Made by a program: the position numbers and the translations under genes. Positions 838 through 7,301 of a DNA stretch of 7,301 nucleotides are shown here, one piece after another (positions within the stretch are counted from its first letter, which is position 1; every line of letters begins with the position of its first letter). The notes below the pieces were generated by a model that saw only the letters and a list, made by a program, of their open reading frames with translations, did not search any database and was not told the origin of the DNA. Source of the DNA: a virus (lineage: Duplodnaviria > Heunggongvirae > Uroviricota > Caudoviricetes); the IMG/VR virus record IMGVR_UViG_2703718791_000006, positions 1-7,301 of that record; one strand, given 5' to 3'.

Positions 838-1137
838 ATGAAACTTAAATATTCTGGCTTAACTGCCAGTGGCAACACTCACCCTAAATTTACGCGCGGT
901 GATATTTACCGCGACCAGTACGGCGGCACGGTAATGATTAAGGGCGTGGCGGGACGGTGCGTAACTTACCGCCGTGAAGGTTACGAATATGATTGCGTGA
1001 TGCCTGTTTATCAGTTCCGGCGTGATTTTTCTCTGGTACAGACCGCGCCGCATAACGTGCCCACCAGCAACGCCAGGGCACGGGCAAACATCCAGAAGCT
1101 GAAAACCATGATTAACGTATTCAGGGGTAAAAAATGA
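838..1137 (+). CDS. hypothetical protein, 99 aa
   Basis: ATG 838 preceded by GGAG (824-827). Stop TGA 1135-1137 overlaps the helicase ATG at 1134 (ATGA coupling). No family recognised. Confidence 0.55.
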   Translation: MKLKYSGLTASGNTHPKFTRGDIYRDQYGGTVMIKGVAGRCVTYRREGYEYDCVMPVYQFRRDFSLVQTAPHNVPTSNARARANIQKLKTMINVFRGKK

Positions 1138-2882
1138 AACTGGCACCGAACGTAAAAAAACAGCCACGCGGAATAAAACACAAAGACACAGAGGTAATTA
1201 TCTTTGCGGGTAGTGATGCCTGGTCGCACGCGAAACAATGGCAGGAGCAGGATGGCCCCGCATCCGGCGATAATGTGCCGCCTGTGTGGCTTGGGCCAAA
1301 GCAGCTTGCCGAACTTGATGCGCTGAAAATTGTTCCGGATGGGAAAAAGCGCGTAAGGCTGTACCAGGCCGGAGAACTAGATTTAGTGGAGACCAAAAAG
1401 ATTGGTCAGAAGCTGGCGGCGGCAGATATTCAGGACGCAAATTTTTACCACGAAGGAATGCACGTCCAGAAGTGTGAAAACTGGCGGCGCTATCTGAATG
1501 CTGAGCGTGAAAATATTGCCGCAGGGCTTACCATGCCGGAGCAGAAAAATACGCAACTGGCACAAATGGCAGACAGTGAGCGCGCACAGATGCTTGCTGG
1601 TCGATTTGATGGCGTTTGTGTGCATCCGGAAAGTGAAATCGTTCACGTATGGCGCGGCGGGGTATGGTGTCCGGTCAGCACAATGGAACTTAGCCGCGAA
1701 ATGGTGGCGATCTATTCAGAGCACAGGGCCACTTTCAGCAAGCGCGTAATCAATAACGCCGTGGAAGCGTTAAAAGTTATTGCCGAACCAATGGGCGAGC
1801 CGTCCGGCGATTTGCTGCCGTTCGCCAATGGTGCGCTTGACCTGAAAACGGGGGAATTTTCCCCGCACACGCCGGAGAACTGGATCACCACGCACAACGG
1901 CATTGAGTACACGCCACCAGCACCAGGGGAGAATATCCGCGACAACGCGCCAAACTTTCATAAATGGCTTGAGCACGCAGCCGGAAAAGACCCGCGCAAG
2001 ATGATGCGTATATGTGCCGCGCTGTACATGATTATGGCGAACCGGTACGACTGGCAGATGTTTATTGAGGCCACCGGAGACGGCGGGAGCGGTAAAAGTA
2101 CATTCACACACATAGCCAGCCTTCTGGCAGGGAAACAGAACACGGTAAGCGCTGAAATGACATCGCTTGATGATGCTGGTGGACGTGCGCAGGTTGTCGG
2201 GAGTCGTCTTATCGTCCTGGCTGACCAGCCGAAATATACAGGCGAAGGAACGGGCATCAAGAAAATCACGGGCGGCGACCCCGTGGAAATTAACCCGAAA
2301 TATGAGAAGCGTTTTACGGCGGTAATCAGGGCGGTGGTGCTGGCTACCAACAATAACCCGATGATATTCACCGAACGGGCCGGAGGTGTGTCACGTCGTC
2401 GCGTAATTTTCCGTTTCGACAATATCGTCAGTGAGGCCGAAAAAGACAGGGAGCTACCGGAAAAGATTGCGGCTGAAATCCCTGTCATTATCCGCCGATT
2501 GCTGGCGAACTTTACCGACCCTGAGAAGGCACGGGCTTTACTACTGGAACAGCGTGACGGTGATGAAGCTCTGGCAATAAAGCAACAGACGGATCCGGTT
2601 ATTGAGTTTTGCCAGTTCCTGAATTTTCTGGAGGAAGCACGCGGCCTGATGATGGGCGGCGGTGGCGATTCAGTGAAGTACACGACCAGGAACAGCCTTT
2701 ACCGCGTCTATCTGGCGTTTATGGCATACGCAGGCAGGAGCAAACCGCTAAACGTGGCTGAGTTCAGCAAGGCCATGAAGCCAGCGGCGAAAGTTTACGG
2801 GCATGAATATATTACGCGAAAAGTTAAGGGAGTAACGCAGACCAACGCAATTACAACAGACGATTGCGACGCGTTTTTATAA
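1134..2882 (+). CDS. replication protein: P4-alpha / D5-type superfamily-3 helicase (phage/plasmid primase C-terminal-domain family)
   Basis: 582-aa ORF with Walker A GDGGSGKST (about nt 2079-2105) and a Walker B-like hydrophobic run ending in Asp (RLIVLADQ) in a central NTPase region, flanked by N- and C-terminal extensions as in P4-alpha/D5-family proteins. Last gene of a coupled operon and immediately followed by an iteron array. Whether a primase domain is present cannot be settled by eye. Confidence 0.7.
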   Translation: MKLAPNVKKQPRGIKHKDTEVIIFAGSDAWSHAKQWQEQDGPASGDNVPPVWLGPKQLAELDALKIVPDGKKRVRLYQAGELDLVETKKIGQKLAAADIQDANFYHEGMHVQKCENWRRYLNAERENIAAGLTMPEQKNTQLAQMADSERAQMLAGRFDGVCVHPESEIVHVWRGGVWCPVSTMELSREMVAIYSEHRATFSKRVINNAVEALKVIAEPMGEPSGDLLPFANGALDLKTGEFSPHTPENWITTHNGIEYTPPAPGENIRDNAPNFHKWLEHAAGKDPRKMMRICAALYMIMANRYDWQMFIEATGDGGSGKSTFTHIASLLAGKQNTVSAEMTSLDDAGGRAQVVGSRLIVLADQPKYTGEGTGIKKITGGDPVEINPKYEKRFTAVIRAVVLATNNNPMIFTERAGGVSRRRVIFRFDNIVSEAEKDRELPEKIAAEIPVIIRRLLANFTDPEKARALLLEQRDGDEALAIKQQTDPVIEFCQFLNFLEEARGLMMGGGGDSVKYTTRNSLYRVYLAFMAYAGRSKPLNVAEFSKAMKPAAKVYGHEYITRKVKGVTQTNAITTDDCDAFL

Positions 2883-3165: not shown

Positions 3166-3480
3166 ATGCGCATACATCAAAATCACTTAACAAACATGCC
3201 AGCCGAAAACATGAATCAGGGGCGACAAATGACCAAAATTCGCAGAGACAGAACAGAGCCAAAATATAAAGCGTTAGACATGACTGAGCATACCTTAAAG
3301 GTGGCAATCAGAACGATAGACCGCCACACGCGGGAAGGATACGCGAAGGAACATCCCGACCTGATAAGCGCATTCATGACCACAGCGGCGGCAAACTTTG
3401 CCACGCTGACAGAACGGGAGATTGCCGAAGCGGAACAGGTAACAACCATCAACGTTAAAACCGGAGAGGTGGAATCATGA
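3166..3480 (+). CDS. hypothetical protein, 104 aa, coupled to ssb
   Basis: ATG 3166 about 8 nt downstream of AGGGGGTG. Stop TGA 3478-3480 overlaps the ssb ATG at 3477. Alternative internal starts exist. No family recognised. Confidence 0.5.
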   Translation: MRIHQNHLTNMPAENMNQGRQMTKIRRDRTEPKYKALDMTEHTLKVAIRTIDRHTREGYAKEHPDLISAFMTTAAANFATLTEREIAEAEQVTTINVKTGEVES

Positions 3481-3887
3481 CAGCACAGATAGCCGCTTAC
3501 GGGCGGCTGGTGGACGACCCGCAGGTAAAACAGACCAGCAAGGGCACACCGATGACGCTGGCGCGTATGGCGGTCCCCCTTCCGTGCAGCCAGGCAGATG
3601 ACGGAACGGCTACGTTATGGCTATCGGTGATGGCATTTGGTAAGCAGGCCGACTTCCTGGCTAAACATCAAAAAGGCGACGTTGCCAGCATATCTGGCGT
3701 GATGCAGATAAGCCAGTGGACCGGACAGAACGGGGAAACGCGGCAGGGTTATCAGGTTATTGCAGACAGCGTAATCAGTGCCCGTGCGGCACGTCCTGGC
3801 GGGAACAGACGCAAAACCACAGGCGCACAGGGTAATCAGCCACCAGCGGGAGACGATGACCCCTACGGTGATGATATTCCGTTCTGA
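3477..3887 (+). CDS. ssb: single-stranded DNA-binding protein (short OB-fold SSB with acidic C-terminal tail)
   Basis: 136 aa. N-terminus GRLVDDPQV resembles E. coli SSB GNLGQDPEV, and an aromatic/Gly-Lys OB-fold block (WLSVMAFGKQA versus WHRVVLFGKLA) follows. A Gly/Pro/Gln-rich linker ends in DDDPYGDDIPF, the canonical SSB tail. Good SD (GGAGAGGTGG) upstream. Confidence 0.85.
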   Translation: MTAQIAAYGRLVDDPQVKQTSKGTPMTLARMAVPLPCSQADDGTATLWLSVMAFGKQADFLAKHQKGDVASISGVMQISQWTGQNGETRQGYQVIADSVISARAARPGGNRRKTTGAQGNQPPAGDDDPYGDDIPF

Positions 3888-4124: not shown

Positions 4125-4331
4125 ATGGCAGAAGAGAAAAAAGGCGGTGTTTCGGTGTACATAAGCCCCGAAATCGTGGAGGTGCTCAAGCAGCGCCACA
4201 AAAAAAACTATGAGGCTGGCGTAGCGGCTGGACTGGATCCGCTGATGACGCCGGAGCCGTCGATAGGTTCACTTGTGCGCTCTTATTTACTTGCGGCGCT
4301 TGGGATGCATAAAAATTATGGGGGTGAATAA
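4125..4331 (+). CDS. hypothetical small protein, 68 aa; possible ribbon-helix-helix DNA-binding protein
   Basis: N-terminal GGVSVYISPEIVEVLKQ fits a beta-strand plus helix pattern as in Arc/CopG-type RHH proteins, and a second helix SIGSLVRSYLLAALG follows. Stop TAA 4329-4331 overlaps the capsid ATG (TAATG). The fold assignment is a guess from sequence pattern only. Confidence 0.5.
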   Translation: MAEEKKGGVSVYISPEIVEVLKQRHKKNYEAGVAAGLDPLMTPEPSIGSLVRSYLLAALGMHKNYGGE

Positions 4332-5386
4332 TGGCAGGCAAAGCAACGGCACTTAACACTAACCAGCTTTTTGCGTACCTGAATCGCGGGGATATTGCGG
4401 AATTTAAATTTAGTCCGCTGTTTACCACGCTGTTTTTCCCGAAAGTAGCGACATTCAACACCCAAAACATCATGCTGGATAACCTGGACACCGAAGAAGT
4501 CACTATGTCAGCGTTTTGCTCGCCTATGGTTGGTAGCCAGGTACAGCGCGATAAAGGGTACGAAACCAGCACGATTAAACCTGGCTACATGAAGCCAAAG
4601 CACGAAATCGATCCAACAAAAACCATCATGCGCATGGCTGGAGAAGATCCGGCACAGCTTAACGACCCAACCTATCGCCGTATGCGCCTGATTACTGGCA
4701 ACATGCGCCGCCAGGTAAACGCTATTAAAGCGCGTGTTGAATGGCTGGCGGTAAATGCGGTAACGACCGGAAAAAACATCATTGAGGGCGAAGGCATAGA
4801 GCGCTATGAAATCGACTGGAAGATACCGGAAAAAAACATCATAGAGCAGGCCGACGGGAAAAAATGGTCAGAGCAGGACAAAGAAACCCACGATCCAATC
4901 TATGATATCGAACTATACGCCGATCAGGCTGGTTGCCCCGCAAACGTCATGATTATGGGCGCTGAGGTATGGCGAACGTTACGCAGCTTTAAAAAATTCC
5001 GTGAGCTGTACGATCTTTCCCGTGGTTCAGAGTCCGCCGCAGAGCTGGCCTGTAAAAACCTGGGCGAAGTGGTGAGCTTTAAAGGCTATCTGGGCGATAT
5101 TGCCCTTATCGTCTATTCCGGCAAATACGCCGACAGCGACGGCACCGAAAAACATTTCCTTGAGCCTGATTTGCTGGTCTTGGGCAACACCAACAATAAA
5201 GGGCTGGTTGCTTATGGTGCGATTATGGATCAGGAAGCGGTAAGAACGGGCGCAACGCAAAACATGTACTACCCGAAAAACTGGATTGAGGACGGCGATC
5301 CGGCGATTGAGTACGTGCAGACGCACAGCGCACCGCAGCCGGTGCCGGCAGACATTCGCAAATTTGTTACCGTCAAAATTGGTTAA
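4331..5386 (+). CDS. major capsid protein, lambda gpE family (HK97 fold)
   Basis: 351 aa, colinear over its full length with lambda gpE (341 aa) as recalled. Conserved blocks: FKFSPLF versus FKFDPLF; PGYMKPKHEIDP versus PGYVKPKHEVNP; DPTYRRMRLITGNMR versus DPAYRRRRIIMQNMR; RGSESAAELACKNLGEVVSFKGYLGDIALIVYSGKY versus RGSNSELETAVKDLGKAVSYKGMYGDVAIVVYSGQY; YPKNWIEDGDPAIEY versus YPKNWVTTGDPAREF. SD GGGGTGA upstream. Confidence 0.9.
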   Translation: MAGKATALNTNQLFAYLNRGDIAEFKFSPLFTTLFFPKVATFNTQNIMLDNLDTEEVTMSAFCSPMVGSQVQRDKGYETSTIKPGYMKPKHEIDPTKTIMRMAGEDPAQLNDPTYRRMRLITGNMRRQVNAIKARVEWLAVNAVTTGKNIIEGEGIERYEIDWKIPEKNIIEQADGKKWSEQDKETHDPIYDIELYADQAGCPANVMIMGAEVWRTLRSFKKFRELYDLSRGSESAAELACKNLGEVVSFKGYLGDIALIVYSGKYADSDGTEKHFLEPDLLVLGNTNNKGLVAYGAIMDQEAVRTGATQNMYYPKNWIEDGDPAIEYVQTHSAPQPVPADIRKFVTVKIG

Positions 5387-5397
5387 CGGGGGATTCT

Positions 5398-5733
5398 ATG
5401 AACACTCCATACATTGAGTTATTTGCAGGCAGTCAGCAGGTATCCACGACGCTGGTACATTTTGCCGCTGATGCTGGCGTCATTCAGGAATTTACCCCGC
5501 TGATGCTGGCGGACAATGGCGAGTTTAAGCCGTGGGATGGTCAGGCGTCCGGAAAGGCTGTTTATCTGACTTCGTACCCCGTGGACACGTCAAAGCAGAA
5601 ATCAGCACAGTGCTACAAGACGGGGATCTTTAATATCGCCGCCGTGAACTGGCCCGAGAGCGTCGACACCGATGCGAAAAAATGCGCCGCCTTTGCGGGT
5701 TCTGGCGTATCCGTTCAGCCGCTGGCCCGATAA
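5398..5733 (+). CDS. head decoration protein, lambda gpD family
   Basis: 111 aa versus gpD 110 aa. Shared blocks: TPLMLAD / TPLMLD, WDG, YKTGIFN..WPE / YKSGTF..WPE, KKCAAFAGSG / KKRTAFAGT. SD GGGGGAT upstream. Gene order is capsid then decoration, the reverse of lambda's D then E. Confidence 0.8.
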   Translation: MNTPYIELFAGSQQVSTTLVHFAADAGVIQEFTPLMLADNGEFKPWDGQASGKAVYLTSYPVDTSKQKSAQCYKTGIFNIAAVNWPESVDTDAKKCAAFAGSGVSVQPLAR

Positions 5734-5745
5734 GCAGGGGGAACG

Positions 5746-6159
5746 ATGGCAACGAATGAAAGCATCATGACGCTACCGCTGGCGAGTAAATTTAAAGCCG
5801 AAGCGCGAGCAATGGCTGACAGAGGTTTATCAACCTACGAGGCCGTATATCAACTCAACAAACTGGAAGAGCAGGACAAGCCGCGCGCTGATGCGATTAT
5901 GGCGCTTCATGAGCATAACGACTATCAGCCGCTGTTACGTGCAATGGCAAACGTGCCTTGTATCGATGTTGGTACGGCTAAAAGCATCCTTAGCATGACC
6001 ATAGAGCAGGAACGCCAGAAGGTTGCGCCGGAGCTTACCGCAGCCTTTGAAAACTTTATGGACATGCACAGCCCGCAAGCCGTTTCAGCTGGCATGGCAT
6101 ACGACGGCAGAAACCCGGGCGATGATGGCGACATCGAGCGCATACTGAAAACCATCTGA
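5746..6159 (+). CDS. hypothetical protein, 137 aa, last gene of the capsid operon
   Basis: Strong SD AGGGGGA before ATG 5746 and a terminator directly after the stop. No convincing similarity to lambda FI, FII or Nu3 as recalled. Confidence 0.6.
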   Translation: MATNESIMTLPLASKFKAEARAMADRGLSTYEAVYQLNKLEEQDKPRADAIMALHEHNDYQPLLRAMANVPCIDVGTAKSILSMTIEQERQKVAPELTAAFENFMDMHSPQAVSAGMAYDGRNPGDDGDIERILKTI

Positions 6160-6165
6160 GACAAG

Positions 6166-6188
6166 GCCGGAGAAATCCGGCTTTTTTT
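6166..6188 (+). terminator. rho-independent terminator after the capsid operon, abutting cosQ
   Basis: GCCGGA-gaaa-TCCGGC hairpin followed by TTTTTTT. Near-identical to the terminator at 3896-3919. Confidence 0.6.
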
Positions 6189-6265
6189 ACGGGTCCTTTC
6201 CGGCATATGGACCCGTTACGGGGCGGCGACCTCGCGGTTTTTCGCTATTTATGACGTTTTTCCGT
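6187..6265 (+). other. lambda-type cos site, copy 1 (cosQ, cosN, I2-like proximal cosB)
   Basis: TTTACGGGTCCTTTCCGG (6187-6204) matches the lambda right-end cosQ region. GGGCGGCGACCT (6221-6232) is identical to the lambda 12-nt cohesive end, and the 17-bp spacing between them is kept. The following CGCGGTTTTTCGCTATTTATGA closely matches the lambda left end CGCGGGTTTTCGCTATTTATGA. No ATGTCCGGTT-type repeats before the terS start. Confidence 0.75.
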
Positions 6266-6269
6266 GAAG

Positions 6270-6296
6270 GTGACACCACCACCACTTGATTAATAT
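6270..6296 (+). promoter_or_regulatory. weak candidate promoter for the small terminase gene
   Basis: GTGACA (6270-6275), about 15-bp spacer, TAATAT (6291-6296). The alternative TTGATT (6286-6291) has a poor -10. Low confidence. Confidence 0.25.
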
Positions 6297-6321
6297 TTAA
6301 CCATGTAGTTAAGGTAACATT

Positions 6322-6756
6322 ATGATTGATAAAGCTTGTTTTGTAAGTCAGCAGGAAATAGCTGAACATTTCAAGGTTAACAGAACCACTATTCGCGCAT
6401 GGACCAAACAGGGGATGCCGTATCTTAATGCGGATCGCGGAAAGTCCGGCGGTTATCACATCGGGCATACATTGCTTTGGTCTTCAGGTAAAAGCCATCT
6501 TGAGGCCATTGGATATCACGTAGAAACCAGTGCGCTGGAAAAAATTATGTTTGCCAGGCTGCTTTCATCTGAGCGTGACGAGTACTCCAGTGAAGAAACA
6601 GAACATCGATTTGATGAAGGTTTGCAGATTTACGGATATTCACCGGAAGATGTGAGCAAGGCACGAAATAAAATGGCTGGCTTTCTGGCTGGGTGGCGTC
6701 ATGCCGTAAGCGTTCGCCGTGCCAGCATGGAGCAATCAGCCGATACAGAACAGTAA
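6322..6756 (+). CDS. small terminase-like protein, phage Nu1 family (N-terminal winged-HTH DNA-binding domain)
   Basis: 144 aa. N-terminus SQQEIAEHFKVNRTTIRAWTKQGMPYL parallels lambda Nu1 KKQLADIFGASIRTIQNWQEQGMPVL. It is shorter than Nu1 (181 aa) and diverges after the HTH. It sits about 90 bp downstream of the cos copy 1 cohesive end, where lambda has Nu1. Confidence 0.75.
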   Translation: MIDKACFVSQQEIAEHFKVNRTTIRAWTKQGMPYLNADRGKSGGYHIGHTLLWSSGKSHLEAIGYHVETSALEKIMFARLLSSERDEYSSEETEHRFDEGLQIYGYSPEDVSKARNKMAGFLAGWRHAVSVRRASMEQSADTEQ

Positions 6757-6824
6757 AGCCGATAACTTGTTAATCACTCGCAGCAATGCATGTGATTTGT
6801 GCACACTTTCGGTTAACTGGTTCG

Positions 6825-6921
6825 ATGTCCGGTTTTAGTGTCTGTTTTTTGCGCATGTCCGGTTCATGGAAAGCATGTTTTTATATTTTTCATATGGTTA
6901 ACTTGCAGAGAAACCGGACAT
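6825..6921. repeat. three 10-bp ATGTCCGGTT repeats in a cosB-like R-I-R-R layout (candidate small-terminase binding sites)
   Basis: ATGTCCGGTT at 6825-6834 and 6855-6864 on the top strand and inverted (AACCGGACAT) at 6912-6921, with an AT-rich stretch (about 6876-6896) between the direct pair and the inverted copy. GGTTAACT also recurs at 6810 and 6895. Lies between the terS stop and the inverted cohesive-end sequence. Confidence 0.5.
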
Positions 6922-6924
6922 GGA

Positions 6925-7003
6925 TCCCGAAAAATTTTCATAAATAGTGAAAACGCGCGAGGTCGCCGCCCCGTAACGGGCCATAATTCCAGGAAGGACC
7001 CGA
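6925..7003 (-). other. second lambda-type cos site, inverted (cosQ-like, cosN, I2-like)
   Basis: Bottom strand reads CGGGTCCTTCCTGG..CGTTACG-GGGCGGCGACCT-CGCGCGTTTTCACTATTTATGAAAATTTTT. The cohesive-end 12-mer occupies 6960-6971 on the minus strand. 6956-6980 is a perfect 25-bp inverted repeat of 6212-6236, with imperfect similarity continuing on both sides. The cosQ-like element differs from lambda at a few positions. Confidence 0.65.
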
Positions 7004-7035
7004 CGACACCAGGCTATCAGAACGATGGGGGCACA

Positions 7036-7301
7036 ATGACAGAAGCCGAACTACTGCGATTAATCCGCCGCGTTACCGGAATCAGCCAGCAGCATGACGA
7101 ACAGGGCACGCAACCGGACAGCGTGACCGCTGAAAATTATGCGCGTGTTGTTGCTGAGGTGATGCGCCGTGATGGTATTGAGCTTAACGGCGTGGATATG
7201 CGCAACATACGAACCAGAGTCCTTGAGTTGCTGGCATACCGTCGCCGCGTGGAGATGTATCGGGAGAAGGAGAAAATCACGTACCACTGGAAGAAGCCGG
7301 A
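7036..7301 (+). CDS. 5' part of an ORF running off the right edge; product unknown
   Basis: ATG 7036 preceded by GATGGGGG, open in frame 1 to the window end (MTEAELLRLIRRVTGISQQHDEQ...). Not in the ORF track because it has no stop in window. No match to the lambda gpA N-terminus; resemblance to the lambda FI N-terminus is too weak to call. Confidence 0.45.
   Translation, partial: MTEAELLRLIRRVTGISQQHDEQGTQPDSVTAENYARVVAEVMRRDGIELNGVDMRNIRTRVLELLAYRRRVEMYREKEKITYHWKKP

Follow-up and report, generated by a model that had tools for sequence, protein, structure and literature searches.

The 144-codon open reading frame at positions 6322-6756 of the window (the whole 7,301-nt stretch of DNA analysed here) is almost certainly an rppA allele of an EcCICFT073-type, cos-packaged PICI, whose product redirects helper packaging by the published Rpp mechanism. 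This role is already known, it was published for RppA in 2019 (Fillol-Salom et al.), and little about the gene is new: it is one more natural RppA allele, found on a different island backbone, and the published mechanism could be recovered from the sequence alone. The only element that may be new is the link of the second cos site of the island (cos2) and its repeats to the cos found in one particular type of lambdoid phage.

The reading frame lies on the plus strand, starts with an ATG and is preceded by an AAGG located 8-11 nt 5' of the start codon. The identity of the gene could be established directly. Its product is identical to RppA of CFT073 (WP_000565609, c1503) at 142 of the 144 residues (99%), the two substitutions being H59 for R and G64 for R, and its N-terminus is the RppA N-terminus (MIDKACFVSQQEIAEHFKVN...) printed in Figure S1 of Fillol-Salom et al. 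2019. In a phmmer search residues 2-125 matched RppC (PDB 6HLK, 6HN7) with E=4e-32. The identity to RppC is 44% overall, 51% in the DNA-binding domain and 38% in the C-terminal part (61 aligned residues); because the overall value agrees with the published RppA-RppC identity of 43.65% (PMC6739421), it was counted in favour of the RppA assignment. The residues whose roles had been defined by mutation of RppA (PMC6739421) are all present: R21 and T22 (cos1-specific packaging), L51 (TerS heterodimer patch) and F121 (alpha6, the homodimer helix). The other hallmarks of an Rpp protein were also found, namely homology over both domains including the winged HTH that carries R21/T22, a helical C-terminal dimerisation domain lacking a TerL-binding tail, a cos1 upstream of the gene and location in a PICI without terL. 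We found nothing in the sequence that would argue against the rppA reading. The protein shares with RppC of EcCIEC2733.1 (6HLK; 6HN7 in complex with lambda TerS 1-98) the two-domain architecture and the residues R21, T22, R25, W27, K29, K41 and L51, and is shorter than RppC (144 versus 153 aa). The single-sequence AlphaFold2 model of the 144-aa protein had a mean pLDDT of 45 and a pTM of 0.42, hence the fold was assigned by homology to RppC, whose structure is solved; a curated Rpp model is absent from the Pfam and NCBIfam libraries. The conservation of the gene in at least 83 complete E. coli genomes and the match to a solved homologue confirm that the reading frame is a real gene and did not arise by chance.

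Table 1. Coordinates of the features in the window and of the TerS cassettes in two sister islands
Feature	Position	Strand	Remarks
D5_N/DUF5906 primase	1134-2882		
SSB	3477-3887		
lambda gpE-like major capsid protein	4331-5386	+	
gpD-like decoration protein	5398-5733	+	
137-aa protein, phrog_1999	5746-6159	+	directly upstream of cos1
hairpin GCCGGA-GAAA-TCCGGC followed by T7	6166-6188	+	between the upstream 137-aa gene and cosQ of cos1; read directly
cos1, lambda-like part	6189-6267	+	cosQ ACGGGTCCTTTCC 6189-6201; cosN cohesive end; I2-like stretch to ~6262
cosN cohesive end of cos1, 12 nt, GGGCGGCGACCT	6221-6232	+	exact match, 0 expected by chance
cosB of cos1, PICI-specific	6268-6300	+	cos bp 48-80; contains ACACCACCACCACTTGATTAATATTTAA; without R repeats
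rppA allele, 144 aa	6322-6756	+	winged HTH (~residues 1-64) and C-terminal helical dimerisation domain; ATG at cos bp 102
cosB of cos2	6825-6921	-	three exact copies of ATGTCCGGTT: R3 6921->6912, AT-rich spacer, R2 6855-6864, R1 6825-6834
cos2, lambda-like part	6925-7003	-	I2-like stretch; cosN cohesive end 6971->6960; cosQ ~7002->6992
gene after rpp (93 aa in STEC434)	7036-7301	+	runs past the window end; phrog_1561, E 7.5e-56; no Pfam match
TerS cassette, sister island of O145 RM12367-C1	L006 6030-7000		
TerS cassette, sister island of JNE181771	L012 7590-8590		

An earlier note on this DNA had described the protein as a short small terminase with a Nu1-like N-terminal winged HTH and with a C-terminal part unlike that of Nu1, and this description was borne out. 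Residues 8-56 align with residues 3-44 of lambda Nu1 at 33% identity (BLASTP, pairwise E 4e-6), no alignment to Nu1 extends past residue 56, and the protein is 37 residues shorter (144 versus 181 aa). The match to the PHROG terminase small subunit family phrog_57 is confined to residues 7-46 (E 4.5e-8), whereas the TerS proteins of PhiR12 phages and of sister islands (see below) match this family end to end. The solved DNA-binding domains of lambda Nu1 (1J9I, 7LW0, 6HN7_B) gave weak matches (E 0.13-0.2). The gene resembles members of the lambda gpNu1 family in its location just 3' of a cosQ-cosN unit; it differs from them in that the oligomerisation and gpA-binding C-terminal parts of Nu1 are absent and no terL stands next to it. 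The note was also correct in stating that the next gene is not terL: the reading frame from 7036 onward belongs to phrog_1561 and not to a terL family. When a terL was sought directly downstream in the near-identical islands of STEC434 and CFT073, none was found annotated there or anywhere else in the two full islands, where host genes resume at most about 1 kb past this reading frame. We therefore rejected the possibility that the gene is a true terS: its likeness to Nu1 is confined to residues 7-56, there is no full-length match to the family and a cognate terL does not follow.

The Nu1-like winged HTH at the N-terminus, and the full-length 180-aa Nu1-family TerS that sister islands encode at the same position, might also be taken to mean that the gene is a decayed terS of a defective prophage, which lost its terL and has no function of its own. 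The location of the 180-aa TerS does make descent of rpp from terS plausible. That the present gene is a mere remnant is, however, an explanation to which we assign almost no probability. Its C-terminal half is not a truncated Nu1 sequence but a distinct conserved domain homologous to the dimerisation helices of RppC, the rpp reading frame is uninterrupted, with 98-99% conservation between islands that differ by 3-8% in their backbones, and deletion of rppA abolishes interference, while point mutations in rppA reduce island transfer (PMC6739421).

In Pfam and NCBIfam searches the protein gave only sub-threshold HTH matches, in Pfam to HTH_28, HTH_36, HTH_11 and HTH_17, and there was a weak BldC-type match. 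Such matches could be expected if the gene coded for an ordinary HTH transcription regulator or an excisionase-like island protein unrelated to packaging, but all of them fall below the curated cut-offs and extend over no more than about 22 residues. It was RppC, RppA and terS families that gave the strong matches, and the published phenotype maps to TerS (PMC6739421), hence a role as regulator or excisionase is extremely improbable.

The way in which RppA redirects packaging was worked out in published experiments (PMC6739421). When RppA is expressed, lambda and phi80 are blocked and HK97 is not; the escape mutations map to terS, where E65K, D68G, L69R and R70P fall in the alpha3 region of TerS. 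RppA homodimerises and also forms heterodimers with TerS. In the presence of RppA the transfer of plasmids with a phage cos falls and that of plasmids with the island cos1 rises. Swaps of cosB segments identified the cosB of cos1 as the determinant, only constructs containing this cosB being transferred when RppA was present, and phi80 carrying the cosB of cos1 turned RppA-dependent. The R21A/T22A mutant of RppA behaved as the model predicts. It must be noted that DNA binding by Rpp-TerS was shown genetically only, not biochemically (PMC6739421). Work on EcCICFT073 also showed that the helper terS stays essential. There is no known contact between Rpp and TerL, the still required helper TerS was proposed to bring TerL (PMC6739421; PMC9026076), and Murialdo and Feiss (2022) inferred that the TerS partner supplies the TerL-binding domain (PMC9026076).

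TerS binding, interference and cos1 specificity have thus been shown experimentally in the literature, with a protein that differs from the one encoded in the window at two of 144 residues. The same experiments support the proposal of the earlier note that a satellite protein, which keeps the DNA-recognition half of a small terminase, redirects helper packaging, since this is the established function of RppA. The note had suggested that the protein could steer the helper large terminase; this stands as regards redirection to the satellite, but TerL would be recruited not by Rpp itself but by the helper TerS in the heterodimer.

For the island in the window the mechanism would operate as follows. 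When a lambda-like helper replicates, Rpp dimers would bind helper TerS through two surfaces, of which the N-terminal one would mimic the dimer interface of the TerS DNA-binding domain, and the other would be the C-terminal coiled coil. The Rpp-TerS heterodimer would no longer read phage cosB, and phage packaging would be blocked for this reason. The heterodimer is predicted to recognise the island cosB of cos1, which has a lambda-like spacing from cosN, and the TerS partner would bring helper TerL, which would nick cosN of cos1, leading to rightward packaging of island concatemers into helper capsids. What we infer in this scheme is which bases are contacted and that TerL comes in through TerS; the alpha2 helix of Rpp may read the bases around cos bp 55-63. 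It is interesting to compare this strategy with the packaging hijack of SaPIs (SaPI TerS plus Ppi; SaPIbov5 with the helper cos). The logic is shared, in both systems helper packaging is redirected by the satellite, which also interferes with the phage (PMC6739421). SaPIs, however, use two proteins or a copied helper cos, whereas Rpp alone does both jobs, pairing with helper TerS in a hybrid dimer that binds DNA.

The anatomy of cos1 can be read directly in the window. The site, which is one arm of a 78-nt inverted repeat, aligns to the cos of phage 21 and of PhiR12 and to the published cos1 of EcCICFT073 (Fig S1A), and its distance from the rpp start codon is that of the published layout of such islands. 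Packaging from cos1 would run rightward into rpp. The cosB segment between the lambda-like part of cos1 and rpp (ACACCACCACCAC...) differs from a lambda-type cosB, it has no R repeats and its sequence is unrelated. This segment is identical in CFT073 and STEC434, and its ACACCACCACCACTTGATTAATATTTAA motif is kept even in the island of ETEC1734, where rpp is about 86% identical in DNA (82-86%) and cosN is different. Conservation of the motif next to a diverged rpp and a different cosN is a pattern that fits a binding site of an Rpp-containing complex, and 6268-6300 is the probable Rpp-TerS recognition region. The published cosB swap and phi80 chimera experiments were done with this segment (PMC6739421), and Murialdo and Feiss placed R3-PICI at bp 48-65 (PMC9026076).

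The hairpin followed by T7 between the 137-aa gene and cos1 looks like an intrinsic terminator, but this is a weak call, a consensus terminator scan of 5700-7301 did not list it. Its location suggests that the head-gene operon ends there and that rpp needs its own promoter. A promoter scan of the same region returned four promoter-like sites, against 1.8 ± 1.2 expected, i.e. nothing beyond chance, and an Rfam scan of the window gave no matches.

A second copy of the cohesive-end sequence (6960-6971, minus strand) centres the other arm of the 78-nt inverted repeat. This site matches the published cos2 of EcCICFT073, and packaging from it would run leftward into rpp. Cos2 has a complete lambda-type architecture with cosQ, a 12-nt cosN, three R boxes and an AT-rich spacer; R3 is at cos2 bp 51-60, which is the position of R3 in lambda, and R2 and R1 are oriented opposite to R3. 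The earlier note had regarded the ATGTCCGGTT repeats as the satellite cosB and as the target of the protein, and three exact copies within 100 bp beside a cosN, in an order resembling the R3-I1-R2-R1 of lambda, would agree with a model in which Rpp reads these repeats and steers terminase there. This part of the note did not hold up, and we consider the model very unlikely. The repeats are in cos2, not in cos1; the cosB swaps showed that RppA acts via the cosB of cos1, the cosB of cos2 does not respond to RppA (PMC6739421), and it is cos1, not cos2, that is needed for island transfer (published EcCICFT073 work). The ATGTCCGGTT boxes also precede a different, full-length TerS of 169 aa in PhiR12-type phages and prophages, which have no rpp, and in islands with a related Rpp the cos1 motif is retained, the repeats of their cos2 being unrelated. 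The DNA element relevant to Rpp binding is the cosB of cos1, not the ATGTCCGGTT boxes. A fourth copy of the repeat with one mismatch, CTGTCCGGTT, is present at 7112-7121 (minus strand) inside the downstream reading frame, about 140 bp away on the cosQ side of cos2; this copy is probably there by chance.

Over the 179 bp that reach from cosQ (7003) to the last base of R1 (6825), cos2 shares 93% identity with the cos of PhiR12_1-PhiR12_5 (BLAST, phage collection), where the matching cos stands between Rz and the Nu1-A terminase operon; the homology between island and phage ends directly after R1. Cos2 could be aligned column for column with the cos of PhiR12_1 and with four prophage cos sites from unrelated strains. 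All five phage and prophage sites are located upstream of a 169-aa terS and terL. In this alignment R3 is invariant, R2 and R1 vary at one position each, and the spacers vary. The PhiR12-type TerS is 32-34% identical to the TerS of lambda and phage 21, and diverges from them in alpha3, the region to which the RppA-escape mutations map. Since the boxes precede this TerS in phages and prophages without rpp, we infer that the 169-aa protein, most simply the natural reader of the boxes, would recognise them as R sites. In the published work no phage cosB was identifiable in either cos site (PMC6739421). The comparison was made with lambda, phi80 and CFT073 phage 4 (phi4), the last of which has a phage-21-type cos, and this choice of phages explains why cos2 was not recognised as a phage cos.

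Judged from these alignments it is possible, although we would put it somewhat below an even chance, that by capturing a PhiR12-type cos2 the island acquired two opposite routes: cos1 together with Rpp would serve with helpers that have a TerS open to hijacking, such as lambda, phi80 and 21-type phages, and cos2 would act independently of Rpp, or as a decoy titrating terminase. If this is true, PhiR12-type helpers would use cos2 directly with their unmodified terminase. Cos2 has lacked an explanation since 2018, and a cognate phage-type cos would bear on how cos-type PICIs broaden their helper range. With lambda and phi80, which would be non-cognate helpers, cos2 gives low-level transfer; it is dispensable for transfer by these phages, and its deletion even raised transfer (published EcCICFT073 work). 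Against the PhiR12 route speaks this dispensability with the helpers tried so far, and also the genome of CFT073, in which no further PhiR12-type cos is present.

The cos-terS module of PhiR12 type was detected, at a coverage of at least 80%, in 1,141 of 5,426 complete E. coli genomes, and a close match to the PhiR12-type cosB in 226 of the 5,426, 63 of which carry the island-type copy and about 160 do not. An additional place matching the PhiR12 type was found in 16 of 60 listed island genomes and in 163 of 5,363 others, a comparison which ignores the kinship of the strains and in which only two genomes had their extra places confirmed to be prophage cos sites. These counts are weak evidence that the island and PhiR12-type prophages occur together. 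No paper on the PhiR12 phages (PV340549 etc.) was returned by a literature search, and EcCICFT073 cos2 was mentioned in only two papers.

Sister PICIs provide a further comparison. In the islands of O145 RM12367-C1 and JNE181771, the latter being 97% identical to the window outside the cassette, the slot of rpp between cos1 and the inverted cos2 is occupied by a full-length TerS of 180 aa, which matches phrog_57 over its full length (E 8e-53), shares 39% identity with lambda Nu1, the C-terminal region included, and is only 20% identical to the protein of the window. TerS-encoding E. coli PICIs were noted previously (ISME J 2018). Because cos1 and an inverted cos2 enclose rpp and terS alike, the entire unit, cos1-(rpp or terS)-cos2, acts like a cassette that can be exchanged. 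In the TerS-type islands cos2 has a triple repeat of its own, of GGATCTGA type. The ETEC1734 island (L007 5945-6010, 6690-6760) encodes an RppB-like protein, its cos2 carries a triple repeat of ACAACAACC type, and both its cos1 and its cos2 have a non-lambda cosN. That cosN changed together in the two sites argues for cos2 being kept by selection rather than being a relic. We rejected a generalisation to sister islands, in which each cos2 would have been copied from a known phage cos. The cos2 of the TerS-type island is only 72-79% identical to phages, and the ETEC1734 cos has a match in a single phage record (SerU-LTIIb), only around cosN. Given these weak phage matches, a captured phage cos can be claimed only for the RppA-type cassette. 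As a separate observation, the cosB of cos1 in the TerS-type island of O145 RM12367-C1 (L006 6110-6130) contains GGTGGTGGTGGTGG about where the window has CACCACCACCAC (6273-6285), and the two are one triplet repeat on opposite strands.

The window contains only part of the EcCICFT073-type PICI of Escherichia coli, and its D5-type primase, SSB, gpE-like and gpD-like genes are gene content of a PICI. In a megablast search against complete E. coli genomes the whole window was 97% identical to STEC434, and 88% of it could be aligned to CFT073 at 92% identity; its nearer counterparts (97%) are islands that STEC strains carry in tqsA, rather than that of CFT073. With EcCICFT073 (Fillol-Salom et al. 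2018 ISME J; 2019 Mol Cell) the window shares the gene order and the cos1-rpp-cos2 cassette. The cassette (6150-7040) is about 99% identical to CFT073, and over 6757-7010, which includes cos2 and its repeats, the identity is 100%, whereas it is about 92% in the rest of the window. The cassette thus appears to be more conserved than the island backbone, or to be exchanged independently of it.

The island has its own capsid genes, in E-then-D order (4331-5733). In the 2018 paper deletion of the gpE-like and gpD-like genes left interference intact, and the island was packaged in phage-sized heads. The 137-aa protein encoded next to them is called head-tail connector in some RefSeq records. It also matches the head maturation protease family phrog_53 at profile positions 495-567 of 583 (E 5.5e-8), which suggests a Nu3-like scaffolding domain beside the gpE-like and gpD-like genes.
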